Below, piece by piece: positions 18,921 through 29,383 of a stretch of 64,000 nucleotides of DNA. The position numbers and the translations under genes are program-made. The notes under the pieces were generated by a model. The model worked only from the letters and a program-made list of their open reading frames with translations, was not told where the DNA came from and did not search any database. The stretch comes from Pedobacter sp. (GTDB lineage: Bacteria > Bacteroidota > Bacteroidia > Sphingobacteriales > Sphingobacteriaceae), in assembly GCF_041645105.1 (NCBI RefSeq), contig NZ_JBAZQQ010000011.1, forward strand, positions 37,884-101,883, read 5' to 3'. Positions within the stretch are counted from its first letter, which is position 1; the number at the start of each line of letters is the position of its first letter.

Positions 18921-19610
18921 ATGAACAGAAGAGAAGCGGTGAAAAGTGTTGCCTTTTTAATGGGCGGGGCACTTTCAGCAACTACAATCGGCGTATTTCT
19001 GGAAAGTTGCAATTCAACATCCACTCCAACAAAGGGCAGTTTATTTACCGATAATCAGCAAAACCTGATTACCGAAGTTGCGGATATTATTATCCCTACT
19101 ACAAAAACTCCTGGTGCAAAAGCCGCTGGTGTAGGACCATTCATTTCAATGATGGTAAAAGATTGTTATCCTGATGATGCCCAAAAAGCCTTTATAAAAG
19201 GGCTGGATGATTTGGAGAAACAATCGAAAGATGAATACAAAAAAGGTTTTCTGGAACTCAGTGTAAAAGAGCGTCAGGATTTACTTGGCAAGCTTAGGGA
19301 TGAGACTGTCGCAGCAACTAAAACTGAAAAGGAAAACCTGGACAAGCAGGAACAAGCTGAAAAAGATAAGCAGCTAACAAATCCTGATGAAAAAGCAACA
19401 TCACAGACAGAGAATACAGGTACAATATCCATTCTTCCTAAAGACAAACCTAAAATGGAACCTCGTTTCTTCTCTATTATCAGAGATTTAACCCTATTGG
19501 GATATTTCACTTCAGAAATTGGTGCAACACAGGCTTATGAATTCGTAGAAATACCTGGTCGTTATGACGGCTGTGCAGATATGAAGCCTGGGCAAAGAGT
19601 TTGGTCGTAA
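18921..19610 (+). CDS. Gluconate 2-dehydrogenase subunit 3 family; small Tat-exported subunit of glycoside 3-dehydrogenase (LacC-like)
   Basis: MNRREAVK twin-arginine, FLESC lipobox, ADIIIPTTKTPGAKAAGV, LTLLGYFTSEIG, IPGRYDG. Confidence 0.88.
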   Translation: MNRREAVKSVAFLMGGALSATTIGVFLESCNSTSTPTKGSLFTDNQQNLITEVADIIIPTTKTPGAKAAGVGPFISMMVKDCYPDDAQKAFIKGLDDLEKQSKDEYKKGFLELSVKERQDLLGKLRDETVAATKTEKENLDKQEQAEKDKQLTNPDEKATSQTENTGTISILPKDKPKMEPRFFSIIRDLTLLGYFTSEIGATQAYEFVEIPGRYDGCADMKPGQRVWS

Positions 19611-19630
19611 ACCTTTTATATCATAAATAA

Positions 19631-21334
19631 ATGAGCAATTTAAATGTTAAAGCAACAGCGCAGAATACTTATGATGCGATTGTTGTAGGATCCGGAATTA
19701 GTGGTGGATGGGCAGCAAAAGAATTAACGGAAAAAGGTCTGAAAGTTTTACTACTTGAAAGAGGCAGAAACGTTGAGCATATAAAAGACTATACCACGGC
19801 AATGAAAAAGCCATGGGAGTTTGAACATAGAGGTCGACTAACCGAAGAACAAAAGGAAAGTCACCCAGTACAAAAAAGAGATTATCCTTACCAGGAATTT
19901 AATGAAAGCTTTTGGGTAAATGACCACGATTGTCCATATACCGAGGTTAAACGTTTTGACTGGTACCGGGGTTTCCATGTTGGTGGTAAATCACTAATGT
20001 GGGGTAGACAGAGCTACCGTTTCAGTGATCTGAACTTTGAAGATAACCTTAAAGACGGGCATGGTGTTGATTGGCCAATCAGATATAAAGATCTTGCACC
20101 ATGGTACGATTATGTAGAGAAATTTGCAGGTATCAGCGGACAAGCCGAAAACTGGCCGGCATGTCCAGATGGTCAGTTCCTTCCTCCTATGGAGATGAAC
20201 TGTGTAGAGAAAGAAGTTAAAAAACGTATTGAAGCCAAATGGAGCAAGTCGCGAATTATGACCATTGGCCGTACTGCCAACTTAACTGTTGAACATGGTG
20301 GCCGTGGCAAATGTCAATACCGTAACCTTTGTAGCAGAGGTTGTCCTTTTGGTGCATATTTCAGTACGCAATCCTCTACATTACCTGCAGCTGTAGCAAC
20401 TGGTAATTTAACCTTGCGTCCATTCTCACTTGTAAACTCTATCATTTACGATAAAGAAACTCAAAAAGCAAAAGGTGTTGTAGTTATAGATTCAGAAACA
20501 ATGGAAACCACTGAATTTTTTGCAAAAATTGTATTCGTAAATGGTTCAACCCTTGGCAGTACTTTCGTTCTGTTAAACTCAGTATCAGACGAACATCCTA
20601 ATGGTTTGGGCAATGGTAGTGGTCAATTGGGACATAACTTAATGGATCACCACTTCCGTGCCGGTGCAAATGGAAGATTTGAGGGCTTTGAGAATAAATA
20701 TACTTACGGAAAGAGAGCCAATGGTATTTATATCCCAAGATATCAAAATATGGGTAACGACAAACGTGATTACCTGAGAGGATTTGGCTACCAAGGTGGT
20801 GGAAGTCGCGGTAACTGGCATGCTGATGTTGCTGAATTAGCTTTTGGGGGTGACTTCAAAGATCAAATGACTGTGCCAGGTTCATGGAATATGGGATTAG
20901 GCGGATTTGGTGAAGCATTACCATATTTTGAAAACAAAGTGTATATCGATAAAAGCAAGAAAGATAAATGGGGACAACCTGTTTTGGCTATTGACTGCGA
21001 ATTTAAAGATAACGAGCGCAAAATGCGTGTTGACATGATGAATGATGCAGCAGAAATGCTGGAAGCATCAGGCGCTAAAGATATCAAAACATTTGACAAT
21101 GGTTCTGCACCAGGTATGGCCATACATGAAATGGGAACAGCTCGTATGGGACATGATCCTAAAACGTCTGTTTTGAATAAATGGAACCAGATGCATGAAG
21201 TAAAAAATGTTTTTGTAACCGATGGTTCATGTATGGCTTCAGCCGCATGTCAGAACCCATCATTAACTTATATGGCACTAACTGCCAGAGCGTGTGACTT
21301 TGCTGTTAGTGAATTAAAAAAAGGAAACCTTTAA
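19631..21334 (+). CDS. GMC oxidoreductase; FAD catalytic subunit of glycoside (lactose) 3-dehydrogenase (LacA-like)
   Basis: VGSGISGGWAAKEL FAD motif, VGGKSLMWG, Cys cluster CQYRNLCSRGCP, IHEMGTARMG, NPSLTYMALTARA; no signal peptide of its own. Confidence 0.92.
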   Translation: MSNLNVKATAQNTYDAIVVGSGISGGWAAKELTEKGLKVLLLERGRNVEHIKDYTTAMKKPWEFEHRGRLTEEQKESHPVQKRDYPYQEFNESFWVNDHDCPYTEVKRFDWYRGFHVGGKSLMWGRQSYRFSDLNFEDNLKDGHGVDWPIRYKDLAPWYDYVEKFAGISGQAENWPACPDGQFLPPMEMNCVEKEVKKRIEAKWSKSRIMTIGRTANLTVEHGGRGKCQYRNLCSRGCPFGAYFSTQSSTLPAAVATGNLTLRPFSLVNSIIYDKETQKAKGVVVIDSETMETTEFFAKIVFVNGSTLGSTFVLLNSVSDEHPNGLGNGSGQLGHNLMDHHFRAGANGRFEGFENKYTYGKRANGIYIPRYQNMGNDKRDYLRGFGYQGGGSRGNWHADVAELAFGGDFKDQMTVPGSWNMGLGGFGEALPYFENKVYIDKSKKDKWGQPVLAIDCEFKDNERKMRVDMMNDAAEMLEASGAKDIKTFDNGSAPGMAIHEMGTARMGHDPKTSVLNKWNQMHEVKNVFVTDGSCMASAACQNPSLTYMALTARACDFAVSELKKGNL

Positions 21335-22494
21335 TGGAGAATAGAAAAATTAGAATGGGCATGATTGGCGGCGGTAAAGATGCATTTATCGGCGCCATAC
21401 ATCGTATCGCGGCAAACATTGACGGACAAGTTGAGTTTTGCTGTGGAGCACTAAGTATTAATCCAGAAGTAGCCAAAGAATCTGGTAAAATATTGTTTCT
21501 TGATGAAGACAGGACTTACTTAAACTATGAAGAAATGATTACGCAGGAAAGTAAACTACCTGCTGACAAACGCATAGATTTCGTAACCATTGTAACTCCA
21601 AATTTTGCTCACTTTGCTCCTGCAATGATGGCATTAGATCATGGTTTTAACGTAGTAATAGAAAAACCTATCGCCTTATCACTTGATGAAGCAAAACAAT
21701 TGCAACAAAAAGTTAAAGAAACAGGTTTAACATTATGCTTAACTCACACCTATTCAGGTTATCCAATGGTTAAGCAAGCCAGACAAATGGTTGCAGATGG
21801 CAACCTTGGTGCAATCAGAAAAATTATGGTTGAATATCCTCAAGGTTGGCTAAGCACACTTACTGAACGTGAAGGTAATGCTGGCGCTGCATGGCGCACA
21901 GACCCATCAAAAAGTGGAAAAAGTGGAGCGATGGGCGATATTGGCACACATGCTGCACAATTAGCTGAATATATTTCGGGCTTAAAAATCAGTAAACTTT
22001 GTGCTGATCTGAACATTGTTGTTCCAGGTAGAGGTTTGGATGATGACGGAAATGTGTTGCTTAAATTCGACAATGGTGCAAATGGTATTTTGGTAGCATC
22101 ACAAATTGCTGCAGGCGAAGAAAATGCATTAAAAATTAAAGTATATGGTGAAAAAGGTGGATTAGAATGGCACCAAATGGAACCAAATACATTAGTCGTA
22201 AAATGGTTAGACCAGCCAGCACAGATTTACCGTGCAGGTCAGGCATATTTATCAGATATAGCTAAACACAATACCCGCACACCTGGTGGTCACCCAGAGG
22301 GATATCTTGAAGCTTTCGCTAACATCTATAAAAATTTCGTACTTACTTTAAGAACAAAATTAGCTGGAGGCACTCCAACAGCAGCAATGCTAGACTTCCC
22401 TACAGTTGAAGACGGCGTACGTGGAATGGCATTTATTGAAAACGCAGTGGCTTCAAGCCAATCAGATCAAAAATGGTTTGATTTTAAAATATAA
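21334..22494 (+). CDS. Gfo/Idh/MocA oxidoreductase (cytoplasmic)
   Basis: MIGGGKDAFIG, VTPNFAH, EKP, GAMGDIGTHA; no signal peptide. Confidence 0.9.
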   Translation: MENRKIRMGMIGGGKDAFIGAIHRIAANIDGQVEFCCGALSINPEVAKESGKILFLDEDRTYLNYEEMITQESKLPADKRIDFVTIVTPNFAHFAPAMMALDHGFNVVIEKPIALSLDEAKQLQQKVKETGLTLCLTHTYSGYPMVKQARQMVADGNLGAIRKIMVEYPQGWLSTLTEREGNAGAAWRTDPSKSGKSGAMGDIGTHAAQLAEYISGLKISKLCADLNIVVPGRGLDDDGNVLLKFDNGANGILVASQIAAGEENALKIKVYGEKGGLEWHQMEPNTLVVKWLDQPAQIYRAGQAYLSDIAKHNTRTPGGHPEGYLEAFANIYKNFVLTLRTKLAGGTPTAAMLDFPTVEDGVRGMAFIENAVASSQSDQKWFDFKI

Positions 22495-22500
22495 CGAATC

Positions 22501-23559
22501 ATGACTACAATTAAAGGACCTGGAGTATTTCTAGCCCAGTTTATTGGAGACGAAGCGCCATTTAATTCTTTAGAAGCCATTTGTGAATGGGCAGCAGGAC
22601 TTGGCTTTAAAGGGATACAAATGCCAACGCTTGATGCAAGGTTTATTGACTTGCAAAAAGCGGCAGAGAGTAAAACCTATGCAGATGAACTAAAAGGAAA
22701 AGTAGCTTCGTACGGACTGGAAATTACAGAGCTGTCAACTCACCTACAGGGGCAGTTGGTTGCCGTAAATCCGGCTTATGACCTTGCTTTTGATGCTTTT
22801 GCACCGGATGCTTATAAGAACAATCCAAAAGCAAGAACAGAATGGGCTGTACAACAATTGAAATATGCTGCAAAAGCTTCACAAAACTTAGGCTTAAATG
22901 CTCATGCTACTTTTAGCGGATCATTATTATGGCATATGTTCCATCCATGGCCTCAACGCCCGGAAGGTTTGGTTGATGCCGGCTTTACTGAACTTGCTAA
23001 AAGATGGACACCTATCTTGAATGAATTTGATACTTGTGGTGTTGATGTTTGTTATGAAATACATCCTGGTGAAGATTTATTTGATGGCATCACTTATGAA
23101 ATGTTCCTGGAGAAAGTAAACAACCACCCACGTGCTTGTCTTTTATATGACCCATCACATTTTGTATTACAACAACTGGATTACATTCAATATATTGATT
23201 TTTATCATGAACGTATCAAAGCTTTCCATGTTAAAGATTCTGAATTTAATGCCACAGGAAAGCAGGGAACTTTTGGTGGTTACCAAAGCTGGGCAAACCG
23301 TGCCGGAAGATATCGTTCTCCTGGTGATGGACAAGTAGACTTTAAAACAATCTTCAGTAAACTTGCTCAATATGACTATACCGGTTGGGCTGTAATGGAA
23401 TGGGAATGTTGCATTAAAGACGCTCAGGTTGGCGCCAAAGAAGGTGCAGAATTTATTACAAAAAATATTATTAAAGTAACAGACAGGGCTTTTGATGATT
23501 TTGCAGCTTCCGGTGGAAACGAAGATTTCAACAATAAAATCCTGGGTGTAAATCAATAA
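22501..23559 (+). CDS. Sugar phosphate isomerase/epimerase TIM-barrel protein (IolE/xylose isomerase-like), cytoplasmic
   Basis: CYEIHPGED, YDPSH, AFHVKD, PGDGQVDF, VMEWE. Confidence 0.88.
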   Translation: MTTIKGPGVFLAQFIGDEAPFNSLEAICEWAAGLGFKGIQMPTLDARFIDLQKAAESKTYADELKGKVASYGLEITELSTHLQGQLVAVNPAYDLAFDAFAPDAYKNNPKARTEWAVQQLKYAAKASQNLGLNAHATFSGSLLWHMFHPWPQRPEGLVDAGFTELAKRWTPILNEFDTCGVDVCYEIHPGEDLFDGITYEMFLEKVNNHPRACLLYDPSHFVLQQLDYIQYIDFYHERIKAFHVKDSEFNATGKQGTFGGYQSWANRAGRYRSPGDGQVDFKTIFSKLAQYDYTGWAVMEWECCIKDAQVGAKEGAEFITKNIIKVTDRAFDDFAASGGNEDFNNKILGVNQ

Positions 23560-23565
23560 ATTAAA

Positions 23566-23973
23566 ATGAAACAGACACTATTTATCCTAGGCTGCTTTGT
23601 ATTAGCAATAGCCTCATGTTCAAGTCCTGAAGAGCGTGCAGCATCTTCAAACACGACTACCACAACTGAAACCCCAGCAACAAGTACAGAAACAGCTGCA
23701 CCTGCAACAGCAGTAAAGAGTGATGGTGAGAAATTAATTGCAAAATCAGACTGTATCGGATGCCACAACAAAGTGCAAAAGGTAATTGGCCCTGCATATG
23801 TAGATATTGCAGCAAAATATCCGTTAAACGATGAAAATGTTAACCATCTGGCAGATAAAATTATTAAAGGTGGCCAAGGTGTTTGGGGTGAAATACCAAT
23901 GACTCCACATGCATCTTTAAGTCATGATGATGCCAAAACAATGGTGAAATACATCTTATCTCTTAAAAAATAA
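23566..23973 (+). CDS. Monoheme cytochrome c lipoprotein (electron acceptor, LacB-like)
   Basis: Lipobox IASC, T/A/P-rich linker, CIGCH heme motif, IGPAY, distal ligand PMTPH. Confidence 0.92.
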   Translation: MKQTLFILGCFVLAIASCSSPEERAASSNTTTTTETPATSTETAAPATAVKSDGEKLIAKSDCIGCHNKVQKVIGPAYVDIAAKYPLNDENVNHLADKIIKGGQGVWGEIPMTPHASLSHDDAKTMVKYILSLKK

Positions 23974-23989
23974 CGAACCACACACACAA

Positions 23990-25450
23990 ATGGGAGAAAT
24001 CAACAAAAACCAGGATGCTACGTCGAGACGTAATTTCCTCAAAACCACAGCTATTGCAGCTTCTGCATTTATGATTGTTCCTCGCCATGTATTAGGCGGA
24101 CCTGGATTTTTAGCACCTAGCGACAGACTGATTGTTGCTGGTATTGGTGCTGGAGGTAAAGGCTTCTCGGATATAAAAGCTTTTGCAGATAGTGGTAAAG
24201 CAGACATCGGTTTCCTTTGCGACGTTCATGATAGCAGAGCAGCAAACAGTGTAAAGGCATATCCTAAAGCAAAATATTACAGGGATTACCGTGAAATGTT
24301 CGATAAAGAAGCTAAAAACTTTGATGCTGTTTCTATTTCAACACCAGATCATAGTCACGCTATACAGGCCATTGCTGCCATGCAATTGGGTAAACATGTT
24401 TATGTTCAGAAACCATTAACACACGATATTTATGAGGCACGTGCATTAACTGCAGCTGCAGAAAAATATAAAGTGGTAACACAGATGGGAAATCAAGGCG
24501 CATCAAATGATGGCCCCAGGTTAATGAGGGAATGGTATGACGCTGGTTTAATTGGAGATGTTCATACTGTTTATGCGTGGACAGATAGACCGGTATGGCC
24601 ACAAGGTATTCCATGGTCTGCTAATAAAGCTGCTGTACCTTCAGATCTTGACTGGGATCTTTGGTTAGGTACTGCTCCATACAAAGAGTATGTAGATAAA
24701 CTAGTGCCTTTTAACTGGCGCGGATGGTGGGATTACGGGACTGGTGCATTGGGAGATATGGGCTGCCACCTTTTAGAAGCTCCTTTCAGTGTATTAGATT
24801 TAAAATATGCTACTGAAGTTCAGGCTAGTGTAGGTTCTGTATATGTTGATGAGTTTAAAAGAGGATACTTCCCTGATAGTTGTCCTCCATCAAGCCATGT
24901 TACTTTAAAATTCCCTAAAACCAAAAAAACCAAAGGAGATATCGTTGTACACTGGATGGACGGTGGTATACAACCTGAAAGACCAGAAGAGTTAGCCGCT
25001 AATGAATCATTTGGCGACGGTGGTAATGGTACTTTATTTATTGGAACAAAAGGTAAAATGATGGCTAATACTTATGGTTCAAACCCTCGTCTATTGCCTT
25101 TAAGCAGAAATGAAAATATAAAGGTAAAACAGAAATTTGAGCGTGTAGCTGGTGGTGAAAAAGGTCATTACGCACAATGGGTTGAGGCATGTATTGCAGG
25201 ACATGGTAAAAAAGAGGTAAGCTCTCCATTCTCTATTGCTGGTCCACTTACTGAATCTCTATTAATGGCTAACCTTGCCATTAGAGGAACAGATATACAA
25301 GGTCCTAAAAATGATAAAGGAAAATTCACCTATCCTGGTAGAAACATCAAATTACTTTGGGACAATGCCAATATGAGAATTACCAATTTCGATGATGTAA
25401 ACCAATTTGTAAAACGCGAATACCGTAAAGGCTGGACACTTGGAGTTTAG
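23990..25450 (+). CDS. Tat-exported Gfo/Idh/MocA oxidoreductase
   Basis: SRRNFLK Tat motif; GIGAGGKG, STPDHSH, YVQKPLTH, GALGDMGCH. Confidence 0.9.
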   Translation: MGEINKNQDATSRRNFLKTTAIAASAFMIVPRHVLGGPGFLAPSDRLIVAGIGAGGKGFSDIKAFADSGKADIGFLCDVHDSRAANSVKAYPKAKYYRDYREMFDKEAKNFDAVSISTPDHSHAIQAIAAMQLGKHVYVQKPLTHDIYEARALTAAAEKYKVVTQMGNQGASNDGPRLMREWYDAGLIGDVHTVYAWTDRPVWPQGIPWSANKAAVPSDLDWDLWLGTAPYKEYVDKLVPFNWRGWWDYGTGALGDMGCHLLEAPFSVLDLKYATEVQASVGSVYVDEFKRGYFPDSCPPSSHVTLKFPKTKKTKGDIVVHWMDGGIQPERPEELAANESFGDGGNGTLFIGTKGKMMANTYGSNPRLLPLSRNENIKVKQKFERVAGGEKGHYAQWVEACIAGHGKKEVSSPFSIAGPLTESLLMANLAIRGTDIQGPKNDKGKFTYPGRNIKLLWDNANMRITNFDDVNQFVKREYRKGWTLGV

Positions 25451-25487
25451 GAGCTATACATGCTCCTTTATCCTTAAAACCATAAAT

Positions 25488-26180
25488 ATGAAAAATTATA
25501 TTTCAGCAATGATACTCACCGCAGTTATCTCTGGTGGTATTGCACAAGCTCAATCAAGTAAGAAGGGATTTACCAAAATATTTGATGGAAAAACTACTAA
25601 AGGTTGGCATACTTACGGTAAAACAACCGCAGGGTCAAAATGGACGGTTGAAGATGGAGCATTGCACTTTAATCCTGCTGGAGACAAAAGCGGTGGTGGC
25701 GATTTAGTGACAGACAATGAGTATAGTAATTTTCACTTGAAAATAGATTGGAAGGTTGCGCCAAAAGCCAATAGTGGGATTATTTTCTATGTGAAGGAAG
25801 ATCCTGCTAAATATGCCAAGACTTACAGCACTGGTTTAGAAATGCAGGTTTTGGACAATGATGGCCATCCTGATGGAAAAATCACTAAACATCGTGCTGG
25901 TGATTTGTATGATCTGATTAAAAGCACATCAGAACCTGTAAAACCAGTTGGCGAATGGAATACTGCTGAGATCATTTGTAAAGATGGTAAATTAGAGCAT
26001 TATCTTAATGGTGTAAAAGTTGTTTCTACTACATTGTGGGATGCTAACTGGACTTCACTTGTTGCTGGCAGTAAATTTGGCGGCTGGAAAGATTGGGGTA
26101 CTTTTAAATCGGGTAAAATTGCGCTTCAAGATCATGGAGACAATGTTTGGTACCGCAACATCATGATTAAAAAGCTGTAA
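25488..26180 (+). CDS. DUF1080 family protein (3-keto-disaccharide hydrolase/hydratase)
   Basis: Sec signal from ATG 25488 (the track start at 25440 overlaps the upstream gene); IFDGKTTKGW, NSGI, EMQVLD, GEWN, ALQDHG..VWYRNI. Confidence 0.9.
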   Translation: MKNYISAMILTAVISGGIAQAQSSKKGFTKIFDGKTTKGWHTYGKTTAGSKWTVEDGALHFNPAGDKSGGGDLVTDNEYSNFHLKIDWKVAPKANSGIIFYVKEDPAKYAKTYSTGLEMQVLDNDGHPDGKITKHRAGDLYDLIKSTSEPVKPVGEWNTAEIICKDGKLEHYLNGVKVVSTTLWDANWTSLVAGSKFGGWKDWGTFKSGKIALQDHGDNVWYRNIMIKKL

Positions 26181-26213
26181 AAAATCAAAGAAATAAAAAA
26201 TAAAAAACCAAAC

Positions 26214-27446
26214 ATGAATTTAAACAACCGCATCAAATTATCGGTCATGATGTTCCTGGAATTTTTCATCTGGGGCGCATGGTTTGTTACACTGGGGACT
26301 TTCCTTGGAAGTAATTTAAGTGCCACAGGTGCTGAAACAGGCTCTGTATTTTCAACACAATCCTGGGGTGCAATCATTGCTCCTTTTATCATTGGATTAA
26401 TTGCCGACAGATATTTCAATGCTGAAAAAATCCTTGGGATCCTACACATTGTAGGTGCGATATTAATGTATCAAATGTATAATGCTACAGACATCTCGGT
26501 ATTCTACCCTTATGTACTGGGTTATATGATTTTATTTATGCCTACACTGGCACTTGTAAATTCTGTTTCGTTTAATCAGATGAAAGACCCTGAAAAAGAG
26601 TTTTCTTCTATCAGGGTATTTGGAACAATCGGCTGGATCGTTGCGGGTCTTTTGATCAGCTTTGTATTTCATTGGGATTCTCCAGAAGGCATTACAGCAG
26701 GTTTATTGAAGAACACTTTTATGATGGCTGGAGTTAGTTCTCTTATTTTAGGACTGTTTAGCTTTGCACTTCCTGCGACTCCACCTAAAGTTGCAAAAGG
26801 TGAAAAAATCAGCATCAATGAGATATTAGGTTTAGATGCACTTAAACTATTGAAAGATAAAAACTTTGCCATATTCTTTATCTCTTCAATTTTGATTTGT
26901 ATCCCTTTGGCATTCTATTACCAGAATGCGGGTGTTTTCCTTGCGGATATAAAAGTGACAAACCCTACAGGTAAAATGGCAATCGGACAGATCTCTGAAG
27001 CACTATTCCTGTTAGCTATTCCTGTATTCTTTGCCAAGTATGGTTTCAAAAAAACCATATTGGTTGGTATGTTGGCCTGGGCAGTACGTTATGTATTATT
27101 TGCATACGGAAATGCAAGTGATTTAAGTTTCATGCTAATTATAGGAATTGCATTACATGGTGTTTGCTATGACTTTTTCTTTGTATCAGGTCAGATTTAC
27201 ACCAACTCAAAAGCTGGAGAGAAATTCAAAAGCTCTGCACAAGGTATGATTACCTTAGCTACTTATGGCGTAGGTATGTTAATCGGGTTTAAAGTTGCCG
27301 GTCTGGTAACAGACATGTATAAATCTGATGGTATTACCGATTGGAAAATGATATGGATAATACCAGCTGTAATTGCTGTTGTAGTCTTCTTGCTATTCAC
27401 TGTTCTTTTTAATGAGAAAAAGAAAATAGAACCAACCGTAGTATAA
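26214..27446 (+). CDS. MFS transporter, nucleoside:H+ symporter (NupG/XapB-like) family
   Basis: LSVMMFLEFFIWGAW, RVFGTIGW, GQISE, LHGVCYDFFFV; 12 hydrophobic segments. Confidence 0.9.
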   Translation: MNLNNRIKLSVMMFLEFFIWGAWFVTLGTFLGSNLSATGAETGSVFSTQSWGAIIAPFIIGLIADRYFNAEKILGILHIVGAILMYQMYNATDISVFYPYVLGYMILFMPTLALVNSVSFNQMKDPEKEFSSIRVFGTIGWIVAGLLISFVFHWDSPEGITAGLLKNTFMMAGVSSLILGLFSFALPATPPKVAKGEKISINEILGLDALKLLKDKNFAIFFISSILICIPLAFYYQNAGVFLADIKVTNPTGKMAIGQISEALFLLAIPVFFAKYGFKKTILVGMLAWAVRYVLFAYGNASDLSFMLIIGIALHGVCYDFFFVSGQIYTNSKAGEKFKSSAQGMITLATYGVGMLIGFKVAGLVTDMYKSDGITDWKMIWIIPAVIAVVVFLLFTVLFNEKKKIEPTVV

Positions 27447-27456
27447 CAATTTTGAG

Positions 27457-28338
27457 ATGAGTAAAGATCTAAGCAGAAGAACTGTGTTAAAGAATATTGT
27501 TGCCGGAACCGCTGCATTAGGCGTTTCGGCAACAATACCTGCTTTTGCACTGCAACAATCAGAGTCCAATAAGCTAAAAGGAAACGTAAATCATTCAGTA
27601 TGTCGCTGGTGTTTTGGAAAATTGAGTTTGGATGAACTGTGTATTGAGGCGAAAAAGATTGGCATCAAAGCGATTGACCTTGTGGGCCCTAAAGACTGGC
27701 CAACTTTAAAAAAGCATGGCCTTTATTCTTCTATGTGTAATGGAGCTGAGATTAATTTGGTGGACGGATGGAATGATCCTAAGTTTCATCCAACATTGAT
27801 TAAAAACTATACGGAAATGATTCCTAAAGTTGCTGAAGCAGGCTATACTCAACTGATCTGCTTTAGTGGTAACAGACGTGGTAAAGATGATGAAACAGGG
27901 CTTAAAAACTGTGTTGATGGTTTGAAGCAAATAATGCCTCTAGCAGAAAAACATGGTGTTGTACTAGTGATGGAATTACTGAACAGCAAAGTAAACCATA
28001 AGGATTATCAATGCGACCATACAGCTTGGGGTGCTGAACTGGCAAAAAGACTTGGATCAGAAAATTTCAAGTTGCTGTTCGATATTTATCACATGCAGAT
28101 TGATGAAGGCAATGTGATCAGTAATATTCAGACCTTTCATCCTTACATCTCACATTATCATACAGCTGGAGTGCCCGGAAGAAATGAAATTGATGATACT
28201 CAGGAATTATTTTATCCTGCTATTATAAGGGCAATTCTTGCTACGGGATTTAAAGGCTATGTAGCACAAGAATTTATTCCCAAATATTCAGATAAAATTA
28301 AATCACTTAGAGATGCCGTAAATATTTGCGACGTTTAA
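27457..28338 (+). CDS. Tat-exported hydroxypyruvate isomerase-like TIM-barrel protein
   Basis: SRRTVLK Tat motif; MELLNSKV, FDIYHMQI, HTAGVPGRNE. Confidence 0.85.
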   Translation: MSKDLSRRTVLKNIVAGTAALGVSATIPAFALQQSESNKLKGNVNHSVCRWCFGKLSLDELCIEAKKIGIKAIDLVGPKDWPTLKKHGLYSSMCNGAEINLVDGWNDPKFHPTLIKNYTEMIPKVAEAGYTQLICFSGNRRGKDDETGLKNCVDGLKQIMPLAEKHGVVLVMELLNSKVNHKDYQCDHTAWGAELAKRLGSENFKLLFDIYHMQIDEGNVISNIQTFHPYISHYHTAGVPGRNEIDDTQELFYPAIIRAILATGFKGYVAQEFIPKYSDKIKSLRDAVNICDV

Positions 28339-28349
28339 ATTAAATCAAT

Positions 28350-29231
28350 ATGAACTCAAGAAGAACATTCATTAAACATGCTGGTCTTGCGGCAGCAGGA
28401 GCAATTTTTCTTCCATCCTTTGCATGTACTGCAGCTACAGCTAAAAGAAATGTAGGCTTACAGTTGTATTCACTTAGGGAGCAAATTCCTCATGATGTAA
28501 AAGGAGTAATTGAAAAAATTGCCAATGCAGGGTATAAAGAAGTAGAAACTTACAGCTATTCTAAAGAGGCTGGCTATTGGGGGCTTGATGCAAAGTCATT
28601 TAAAAATTTACTTAAAGCGAATGGCTTAACTTCACCTAGTGGTCACTTTGTTATTGATAATTTCATTACCAGTGGTGATAAAGAATTACTAAAACCTTTA
28701 ATAGAAGGAGCTGCTGCAGTTGACAATCACTACTTTACTGTGGCATGGATGAGTGAACCGATAAGAAAAACTCTTGAAGATTATAAGAAAATTACAGCTC
28801 GCTTAAATGAAGCTGCAGAATTGGTAAAACAGGCGGGAATGAAATTAGCTTATCATAACCATGATTTTGAGTTACATAAGCATGAAGGAGGAACTACAGG
28901 TTACGAAATTATGCTGAATGGTACAGATAAAAACCTGATCAATTTTGAAATGGACCTTTACTGGATAGTACGTTCAGGAAATGATCCTGTTACATTTTTC
29001 AATAAGTATCCGGGACGTTTTGTAATGTGGCATGTTAAAGATATGGACAAAGCTAATCATGCACTAAATACTGAGGTGGGCACTGGTACTATCGACTTTA
29101 AGAGCATTTATGCACATGCAAAGCAATCTGGTCTTGAGCATCTGATTGTGGAGCAGGAGAATTTTAAGAAGGATCCGTTTGTAAGCATTAAGGAAAGCTT
29201 CGATTATGTAAACCGAGAACTGATAAAATAA
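28350..29231 (+). CDS. Tat-exported sugar phosphate isomerase/epimerase TIM-barrel protein
   Basis: SRRTFIK Tat motif; GLQLYSLR, YHNHDFE, EMDLYW, WHVKD, VEQE. Confidence 0.88.
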   Translation: MNSRRTFIKHAGLAAAGAIFLPSFACTAATAKRNVGLQLYSLREQIPHDVKGVIEKIANAGYKEVETYSYSKEAGYWGLDAKSFKNLLKANGLTSPSGHFVIDNFITSGDKELLKPLIEGAAAVDNHYFTVAWMSEPIRKTLEDYKKITARLNEAAELVKQAGMKLAYHNHDFELHKHEGGTTGYEIMLNGTDKNLINFEMDLYWIVRSGNDPVTFFNKYPGRFVMWHVKDMDKANHALNTEVGTGTIDFKSIYAHAKQSGLEHLIVEQENFKKDPFVSIKESFDYVNRELIK

Positions 29232-29251: not shown

Positions 29252-29286
29252 AAGGGATTGGTTACTAAAAGCCAATCCCTTTTTTT
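29252..29286 (+). terminator. Intrinsic terminator of the 3-keto-glycoside operon
   Basis: aagggattgg-ttactaaaag-ccaatccctt followed by a T run. Confidence 0.85.
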
Positions 29287-29383
29287 ATGAGTAAAAAAAT
29301 GCCCATATTTGGGGACTTATTATTTCACCATAAAATACAATTGATAAATAATTAAAAACAAGTAAAACAACTAATTAGAAAAA

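Follow-up and report, generated by a model that had tools for sequence, protein, structure and literature searches.

Ten open reading frames (ORFs) on the + strand fill positions 18921-29231 of the window, a 64,000-nucleotide stretch of Pedobacter sp. DNA (assembly GCF_041645105.1), and very probably specify, in one operon, a two-compartment pathway for the non-hydrolytic cleavage of glycosides via 3-keto intermediates. Here, the genes are numbered g1 to g10 in their order along the strand. Intergenic gaps are at most 34 nucleotides throughout the run, with a single 1-nucleotide overlap, between g2 and g3 at 21334. The Pfam families represented are Gluconate_2-dh3, GMC_oxred_N, GMC_oxred_C, GFO_IDH_MocA (twice), AP_endonuc_2 TIM barrel (three times), Cytochrom_C, 3keto-disac_hyd (DUF1080) and Nuc_H_symport. 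Both the ORFs and the Pfam matches agree exactly with the ten-gene cluster and domains named in an earlier note, which was made from the DNA alone. The two-compartment model is itself not new; in 2019-2022 it was put forward, together with fitness data, for a homologous lacABC cluster in a different strain of Pedobacter. The preprint of Liu et al. (2019; 10.1101/573055), which covers Pedobacter sp. GW460-11-11-14-LB5, Caulobacter and Echinicola, describes periplasmic oxidation by LacABC, cleavage by DUF1080 and uptake of the keto sugar by a major facilitator superfamily (MFS) transporter, with cytoplasmic epimerase/dehydrogenase (IolE-like and MviM-like) steps for which fitness phenotypes were reported. 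The operon is a complete, well-conserved example of this known pathway and not a new kind of system.

In the proposed scheme, the terminal sugar of a glycoside would be oxidized at C3 in the periplasm by the GMC flavoprotein g2, exported by the twin-arginine translocation (Tat) small subunit g1, and the electrons would pass to the cytochrome c lipoprotein g5, probably through an Fe-S cluster. Alternatively, C3 oxidation in the same compartment could be carried out by the Tat-exported, BT2158-like protein g6 using bound NAD. The 3-keto-glycoside would then be split by β-elimination, by g10 at β-linkages and by g7 at α-linkages, to yield the aglycone and a 2-hydroxy-3-keto-glycal. The DUF1080 protein g7 may also hydrate the glycal to the 3-keto-sugar in the periplasm, where reduced g6 may turn the 3-keto-sugar into free sugar. 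The permease g8 would import the glycal and/or the 3-keto-sugar, and in the cytoplasm g4 would hydrate the glycal to 3-keto-glucose, which g3 would convert to glucose with NAD(P)H. The sequence directly shows the gene set, the export signals, the retention of catalytic residues and the persistent gene linkage; the chemical steps, the localization of the proteins and the permease cargo are predictions. The sequence of oxidation, elimination, hydration and reduction is a recently established alternative to the glycoside hydrolases, and with respect to the 2019-2022 model, later enzymology refines the cleavage step, which is elimination plus hydration and not hydrolysis.

The cytoplasmic end of the pathway is represented by g3 and g4. 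The signal-less TIM barrel protein g4 (22501..23559, + strand) aligns over residues 1-349 with residues 1-348 of a chain in PDB 8ro4 (E value of 1.7e-159) named '2-hydroxy-3-keto-glucal hydratase', which, to judge from that molecule name, is AtHYD itself. Accompanying this putative cytoplasmic 2-hydroxy-3-keto-glucal hydratase of the AtHYD type is the signal-less Gfo/Idh/MocA oxidoreductase g3 (21334..22494, + strand; GFO_IDH_MocA; PDB 3v5n, 2e-108), by homology likely a cytoplasmic NAD(P)H-dependent 3-keto-glucose reductase. In the work of Bitter et al. (2023; PMC10628242), AtOGE, AtHYD and the adjoining Gfo protein converted 3-keto-phlorizin to glucose with NADH, and AtHYD was inactive on 3-keto-phlorizin. 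The position of g3 beside g4 fits this AtHYD/Gfo arrangement and, together with the close match of g4 to 8ro4, supports the cytoplasmic pair suggested in the earlier note.

The pair is also found outside the Bacteroidota. Relatives of g4 are encoded on proteobacterial plasmids and chromids, and the identity of this protein, at 65-69% between Bacteroidota and Alpha-/Gammaproteobacteria and 70-94% within Bacteroidota, is the highest of the cluster enzymes. Proteobacterial relatives of g3 are 46-55% identical, with the g3-g4 pair again adjacent. Gene context was taken from three annotated examples, from Pseudoalteromonas, Phyllobacterium and Croceicoccus. In Pseudoalteromonas, an AraC gene is followed by the order Gfo - TIM - MFS - DUF1080 - GMC - small subunit - TIM; no tblastn match between this MFS protein and g8 was obtained at an E value of 1e-5 or better. 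At the Phyllobacterium locus, TIM - Gfo and a sugar ATP-binding cassette (ABC) transporter come after a LacI gene; the binding protein of this transporter, of ~315 residues, is presumably of the ribose/galactofuranose type. In Croceicoccus, the order Gfo - TIM - small subunit - GMC lies beside MFS genes. The pair is transporter-linked in all three examples and the transporter family varies, a pattern that would be predicted for enzymes whose substrate is imported. The earlier proposal that the permease bridges a periplasmic and a cytoplasmic tier fits this constant transporter linkage across phyla.

A search with the permease as query returned 80 Bacteroidota loci (Sphingobacteriales, Flavobacteriales, Chitinophagales and Cytophagales), and gene content and adjacency were counted in the 63 with full flanks. 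All ten genes were present in 38 of these 63 loci, with the order of the window in 34. The g3 and g4 genes were neighbors in 60 loci and the g8 and g9 genes in 57, and the adjacencies survive at least three different gene orders, including a Mucilaginibacter type and a divergent Chitinophagales type.

Export signals are conserved to a similar extent. The four twin-arginine signals listed in the earlier note are all present, as MNRREAVK in g1, SRRNFLK in g6, and SRRTVLK and SRRTFIK in g9 and g10, and the RR motif was retained in 65/65, 64/64, 67/70 and 54/57 orthologues of g1, g6, g9 and g10, respectively. By contrast, RR was found in 0/57, 0/71 and 0/75 orthologues of g2, g3 and g4, in line with the absence of a signal from the GMC protein (19631), the first Gfo protein (21334) and the first TIM barrel (22501). 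The Sec signal of the DUF1080 protein and the lipobox of the cytochrome (AIASC) are likewise present as described. The export signals are not chance occurrences.

Two periplasmic oxidation routes had been envisaged, one cytochrome-linked and one NAD-linked, and candidates for both are encoded. For the first, the catalytic subunit would be g2 (19631..21334, + strand), an FAD-dependent GMC protein without a signal peptide (GMC_oxred_N and GMC_oxred_C). Both PF00732 and PF05199 exceed cut-off in g2, and the FAD-binding GxGxxG motif is VVGSGISGG at residues 18-26. Among solved structures, g2 is closest to the large subunits of two enzymes, fructose dehydrogenase (7w2j, 1e-32) and the FAD glucose dehydrogenase of Burkholderia (6a2u, 7e-28). 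A C228-x5-C234-x3-C238 motif is invariant among 61 sequences, and its spacing is, we assume, that of the 3Fe-4S site of FAD glucose dehydrogenase. The small subunit g1 (18921..19610, + strand; PF13618, 128 bits) is a Gluconate_2-dh3 protein with the N-terminus MNRREAVK and is likely the Tat carrier of the signal-less g2. The product of g5 (23566..23973, + strand; Cytochrom_C) is a monoheme cytochrome c lipoprotein with a Thr/Ala/Pro-rich linker and a single CxxCH, the heme motif C63-x2-C66-H, which is kept in 98-100% of 49 sequences; it is likely the electron acceptor of the GMC enzyme.

FAD dehydrogenase complexes (7w2j, 6a2u and gluconate 2-dehydrogenase) share with the window a signal-less GMC subunit, a Tat Gluconate_2-dh3 subunit, the C-x5-C-x3-C motif and a c-type cytochrome; they differ in that identity is distant (1e-32) and the window enzyme would be expected to oxidize glycosides at C3. 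By homology to characterized enzymes, g1, g2 and g5 are predicted to form a LacABC/GlycDH-type glycoside 3-dehydrogenase with C3 regioselectivity, in which g2 is the putative 3-dehydrogenase of LacA/GlycDH type (the LacABC subunit names being those given in citing papers). The Cys that follows the Tat signal of g1 (FLESC) is kept in just 57% of orthologues and the lipobox Cys of g5 in 63%; membrane anchoring of both proteins therefore varies by lineage.

The second oxidation route would be provided by g6 (23990..25450, + strand), a Tat-exported Gfo/Idh/MocA protein of the BT2158/AL3 type with the signal SRRNFLK. It matches PDB 8tdf/8tdh (AL3) at 7e-98 and NF058561 (BT_2158_fam) with 477 bits over profile positions 1-437 of 487, under the 750-bit equivalog cut-off. 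The AL3 substrate and catalytic residues Gln161, Arg192, Trp195, Asp248, His252 and Tyr349 have counterparts in g6 in the 8tdf alignment, where the g6 motifs MGNQG, TDRPVWPQG (DRPxW), GDMGCH (GDMxCH) and a Tyr opposite the AL3 'CYG' Tyr align with those of AL3; the AL3 motifs were assigned to the published residue numbers by spacing. On this basis, g6 is a putative periplasmic glycoside 3-oxidase and 3-keto-glucose reductase with tightly bound NAD. Nasseri et al. (10.1101/2024.03.25.586180) found that BT2158/AL3 oxidizes glycosides at C3 with non-exchangeable NAD, that the TIM barrel of the BT/AL systems is a 3-keto-β-glycoside lyase, and that their DUF1080 protein is both a 3-keto-α-glycoside lyase and a glucal hydratase. 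A separate observation concerns the position of g6 in Mucilaginibacter, Pelobium and related organisms (L009, L022, L028, L033, L034, L058 and L074), where the gene lies between those for the GMC protein and the small subunit (order g2 g6 g1) and DUF1080 is usually absent from the cluster. This order hints at a tighter functional tie of the NAD-bound oxidase to the flavoprotein/cytochrome system than has been described.

Candidates for both lyases are exported. The DUF1080 protein g7 (25485..26180, + strand; PF06439, 184.6 bits against a cut-off of 26.8) carries the Sec-type signal MKNYISAMILTAVISGGIAQA. Its start is most likely the ATG at 25485 and not the TTG at 25440 of the ORF list, because orthologues start at the matching Met. 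It matches PDB 8tda (BT2157) at 2e-43, and of the BT2 channel residues Glu103, Asn134, Glu164, Gln166, Tyr190, Lys245, Gln273 and His275 (numbered by our own count, with an offset of 9), 7/8 are identical. The eighth position is Glu103, where the loop is shorter in g7 and an Asp lies nearby. This protein is a putative 3-keto-α-glycoside lyase and glucal hydratase of the BT2157/AL2 type. The Tat-exported TIM barrel g10 (28350..29231, + strand), of the BT2156/AL1 type, matches PDB 8tcd/8tcs/8tct at 1e-35 to 1e-33 and AtOGE (8bvk) at 1.8e-21. The aligned g10 motifs YHNHDFE, EMDLYW, MWHVKD and IVEQE (HxH, DxxW, His and Glu) preserve the His-Asp-His metal ligands of AL1/BT1 along with their substrate residues, His and Trp, and their catalytic Glu, a pattern that points to a 3-keto-β-glycoside 1,2-lyase. 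Of the three TIM barrels, to which the earlier note gave no settled roles, two are assignable by homology, the protein at 28350 as a β-lyase and that at 22501 as a hydratase.

The permease g8 (26214..27446, + strand) belongs to the nucleoside:H+ symporter (NHS; NupG/XapB/YegT) family, with a full-length match to PF03825 (391 bits). Against TIGR00889 it scores 383 bits, under the 446 cut-off, so that membership extends only to the wider PF03825 family. The protein is 33% identical to E. coli NupG. Of the residues that form the NupG binding site (PMC8042404), g8 retains those contacting ribose (R136, T140 and E264) as well as Q261, and it also retains the proton site D323. The base contacts are altered, Q225 being replaced by Ala and Y318 by His, the latter as in YegT. 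This residue pattern is compatible with a sugar-like cargo, and g8 is a putative importer of a keto or anhydro sugar intermediate, set in a context of sugar oxidation and not of nucleoside salvage. Across four Bacteroidota orders, g8 is 72-87% identical.

As to the cargo itself, both lyase candidates are exported and AtHYD is inactive on the intact 3-keto-glycoside, and the imported species should therefore be at the monosaccharide level. The g4 gene is kept in 62/63 loci, even where the cluster lacks DUF1080, which suggests that un-hydrated glycal reaches the cytoplasm. Roughly estimated, the glycal has about an even chance of being the imported compound, 3-keto-glucose a somewhat smaller one, and something else a small one.

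Copy number in the genome differs between the tiers. The g3, g4 and g9 genes are single-copy, whereas 9 DUF1080 proteins, carrying 11 such domains, are encoded in the genome along with several BT2158-like proteins and 5 small subunits, which have 4-5 GMC partners. Two satellite modules were examined. One is an orphan GMC/small-subunit pair with a GMC protein 80% identical to g2, and the other has a BT2158-like gene, its product 69% identical to g6, beside a gene for a 1140-residue HEAT-repeat protein with two C-terminal DUF1080 domains. The cytoplasmic tier is present in neither. With many paralogous periplasmic oxidases and DUF1080 proteins but g3, g4 and g9 each single, the periplasmic tier appears to consist of diverse front ends that supply a common cytoplasmic back end. 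Such an organization would explain why, in published screens, single DUF1080 genes had no phenotype on lactose. The gene for the 1140-residue protein is flanked by two Gfo genes, with a divergent ROK-family gene (C2, ~520900-527100; L086:3891-10130).

Several points weigh against the two-compartment interpretation. The pairing of g5, a 135-residue monoheme lipoprotein, with the GMC enzyme is an assumption; its gene adjoins g6 and not g2, and the fructose and glucose dehydrogenase complexes presumably use a membrane triheme subunit, unlike g5. Although g6 is a clear relative of BT2158, it is not an equivalog by the NCBI threshold. The g8 family comprises nucleoside transporters, and to our knowledge a sugar cargo has been demonstrated for no member. 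Identification of the signals relied on visual inspection and on their retention among orthologues. The model holds no step for g9, and the established pathway requires no isomerase or epimerase. Finally, the periplasmic hydratase activity of g7 and reductase activity of g6 could in principle finish the pathway, leaving plain glucose for import and the role of g3 and g4 unclear.

This last point leads to the view that all of the chemistry is periplasmic, with 3-keto-glucose reduced by g6, as proposed for B. thetaiotaomicron, and glucose entering by other transporters; g8 and g3/g4 would then just salvage leaked reactive intermediates or serve another substrate. The correspondence of g6, g7 and g10 to three enzymes that are sufficient in vitro, and the efficiency of the DUF1080 hydratase in the BT/AL system, are in accord with this view. 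However, within the cluster, conservation and constancy of linkage are highest for g3, g4 and g8, and g3 and g4 each occur in a single copy; the electrons of the GMC enzyme go to cytochrome c, so that its 3-keto product needs a reductant that is absent from the periplasm; and fitness phenotypes have been published for the MFS, IolE-like and MviM-like genes (10.1101/573055). We consider an entirely periplasmic pathway improbable.

Still lower probability is attached to two further explanations. Import by g8 of an intact 3-keto-disaccharide or 3-keto-glycoside, with cleavage in the cytoplasm, draws on a weak similarity of g8 to LacY/oligosaccharide transporters (PF01306, 43.9 bits; TIGR00882, 39 bits) and appears very unlikely in the face of the conserved export signals of g7 and g10 and the inactivity of AtHYD, a close relative of g4, on 3-keto-phlorizin (PMC10628242). 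The Phyllobacterium pair, moreover, adjoins a sugar ABC system, and its ~315-residue binding protein, if of the type we presume, suggests a monosaccharide-sized cargo. Similarly, we hold it to be highly improbable that the cluster serves mainly levoglucosan, 1,5-anhydro sugars, inositols or nucleosides by the same chemistry. A partial match of g3 to the levoglucosan dehydrogenase model (111.6 bits; cut-off 650), weak IolE matches of g4 and g10 and the membership of the permease in the nucleoside symporter family could be read in this way, but the levoglucosan and IolE matches are far under the family cut-offs, and six of the proteins have their nearest characterized relatives among enzymes that process O-glycosides and the products derived from them. 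In addition, a second Pedobacter strain depends on its LacABC-type dehydrogenase for lactose, salicin and further glycosides, and the BT/AL enzymes are reported not to accept levoglucosan (Nasseri et al., 10.1101/2024.03.25.586180). Cleavage of C-glycosides as the main role was considered and rejected, since the cluster has no DUF6379-type β subunit and lyases of the AL1/BT1 type do not cleave 3-keto-C-glycosides.

The second exported TIM barrel, g9 (27457..28338, + strand; PF01261), is a Tat-exported protein of the hydroxypyruvate-isomerase-like branch. Matches to Hyi, OtnI and psicose-epimerase models are weak and all far under cut-off; against the equivalog models TIGR03234 and NF043033, g9 scored 81.7 bits (cut-off 353) and 80.4 bits (cut-off 325), with the C-terminal half only. 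Residues E173, D209, H235 and E272 are invariant in 31 orthologues and fall, in the alignment, on the metal ligands of g10, where the first His of the lyase is replaced by Glu, a Glu-for-His pattern that we take to be typical of the isomerases and epimerases of this fold. The homologue search brought up near-identical Pedobacter proteins only, annotated 'hydroxypyruvate isomerase family' and uninformative as to function; the proteobacterial clusters, and a few of the Pedobacter loci, lack the gene. Our best guess from these residues is a periplasmic keto-sugar isomerase or epimerase. More specifically, and tentatively, since the idea is more doubtful than probable, g9 might be an undescribed enzyme of this kind, possibly catalyzing C4 epimerization beside the 3-keto group and thereby bringing 3-keto products or glycals from the galacto into the gluco configuration. 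If this were so, the gluco form could enter through the single g8 and be processed further by the single hydratase/reductase pair; many periplasmic oxidases would then share one cytoplasmic back end, and the entry of lactose-type substrates into a glucose-type pathway would be explained.

The operon was compared with several known systems. The lacABC clusters of Pedobacter sp. GW460-11-11-14-LB5, Caulobacter crescentus and Echinicola vietnamensis (Liu et al. 2019, 10.1101/573055, and Cell Rep 2021, PMC8121099; Price et al. 2022, PMC9007349) share its gene kinds, namely the LacABC-type dehydrogenase, DUF1080, IolE-like TIM barrels, MviM/Gfo dehydrogenases and an MFS transporter. The GW460-11-11-14-LB5 strain belongs to the same genus as the window's source and is represented by a different assembly, and the comparison between the two was made by kind of gene. 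In the lacABC papers, DUF1080 is called a hydrolase and the roles of the TIM barrels are left open; in the window, two of these can be assigned by homology. The GlycDH operon of A. tumefaciens and Rhizobium sp. GIN611 (PMC10628242) consists of GlycDH with a TAT protein, AtOGE, AtHYD and a Gfo oxidoreductase. It has in common with the window a GMC protein with a Tat small subunit, a TIM-barrel β-eliminase, and a glucal hydratase with an adjoining Gfo reductase. Beyond these, the window holds a BT2158-like Tat oxidase, DUF1080, a cytochrome c lipoprotein, a NupG-like permease and a second Tat TIM barrel, and its g10 is nearer to AL1/BT1 (1e-35) than to AtOGE (1.8e-21).

In the gut clusters, B. 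thetaiotaomicron BT2156-BT2160 and Alistipes AL1-AL5, the three periplasmic enzymes are matched by g10, g7 and g6, with active-site residues kept, and a Tat signal is common to g6, BT2158 and AL3. These clusters lack the GMC/cytochrome route, a linked permease, an AtHYD-like hydratase and g9, all four of which are found in the window. Their cytoplasmic Gfo protein (BT2159/AL4) is of a different family, g3 having no BT_2159_fam match, and the window has no regulator of the SusR/DUF6377 type, unlike the gut clusters. The operon unites the respiratory GMC type of Agrobacterium and Caulobacter with the NAD-bound type of gut Bacteroides, together with a transporter and cytoplasmic finishing enzymes. 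It can serve as a template for annotating genes called 'sugar phosphate isomerase', 'hydroxypyruvate isomerase', 'nucleoside permease' or 'Gfo/Idh/MocA oxidoreductase' in soil and aquatic Bacteroidota, and it frames two questions, the cargo of the permease and the job of the second exported TIM barrel.

The 3' end of the operon is marked by a strong intrinsic terminator at 29252-29281 on the + strand, annotated as 29252..29291, with a 12-bp stem containing 5 GC pairs, followed by TTTTTAT. The neighbors are housekeeping genes unrelated to the cluster: on the upstream side an Mrp antiporter, YebC and an NAD epimerase, on the downstream side asd, an S13 peptidase and GH20; no regulator gene adjoining the operon was found among the flanking genes. 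A search upstream of g1 for a LacI-type operator, TGnAAnCGnTTnCA, found no site close to the operon, and the number of matches in the whole window, 3, is that predicted by chance. A sigma-70 promoter scan gave 24 sites against 34.5 in shuffled sequence and is uninformative for a Bacteroidota genome. A link to the β-1,2-glucan locus at 1-11 kb was ruled out, as the Mrp antiporter operon and two opposite-strand genes intervene. Pedobacter sp. ok626 and P. hiemivivus supply the closest homologues that carry a name, and Pedobacter is also the source of the nearest related loci; the window's own assembly comprises 29 contigs.

A paralogue of g8, 53% identical, is encoded at a second locus of the same genome (C23, ~721000-726200; L084:7039-12140). 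On one side it adjoins the gene for a 919-residue exported fusion of a PQQ-type glucose/sorbosone dehydrogenase with PKD, cytochrome c and CBM6 domains, and on the other a signal-less Gfo oxidoreductase gene followed by an ADP-ribosylglycohydrolase-family gene, the latter, we presume, as in E. coli yegTUV. This locus repeats the layout of a cytochrome-linked periplasmic sugar oxidase, an NHS-family permease and a cytoplasmic Gfo protein. In Croceicoccus marinus, the Gfo - hydratase - small subunit - GMC block on plasmid pCME4A9I (L081:1097-13378) is joined to a TIM barrel and DUF6379 pair, GH3 and a ThuA-domain protein, and also to a GPH symporter and a g9-like TIM barrel (27% identity). The TIM and DUF6379 pair is taken to be of the C-glycoside deglycosidase type, and the locus appears to be a mixed O- and C-glycoside locus. 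Within the operon of the window, a 6-bp GC-rich hairpin with a T-rich tract at 25449-25467 overlaps the g6 stop codon just 5' of the g7 start and could be a weak internal attenuator or a chance match.

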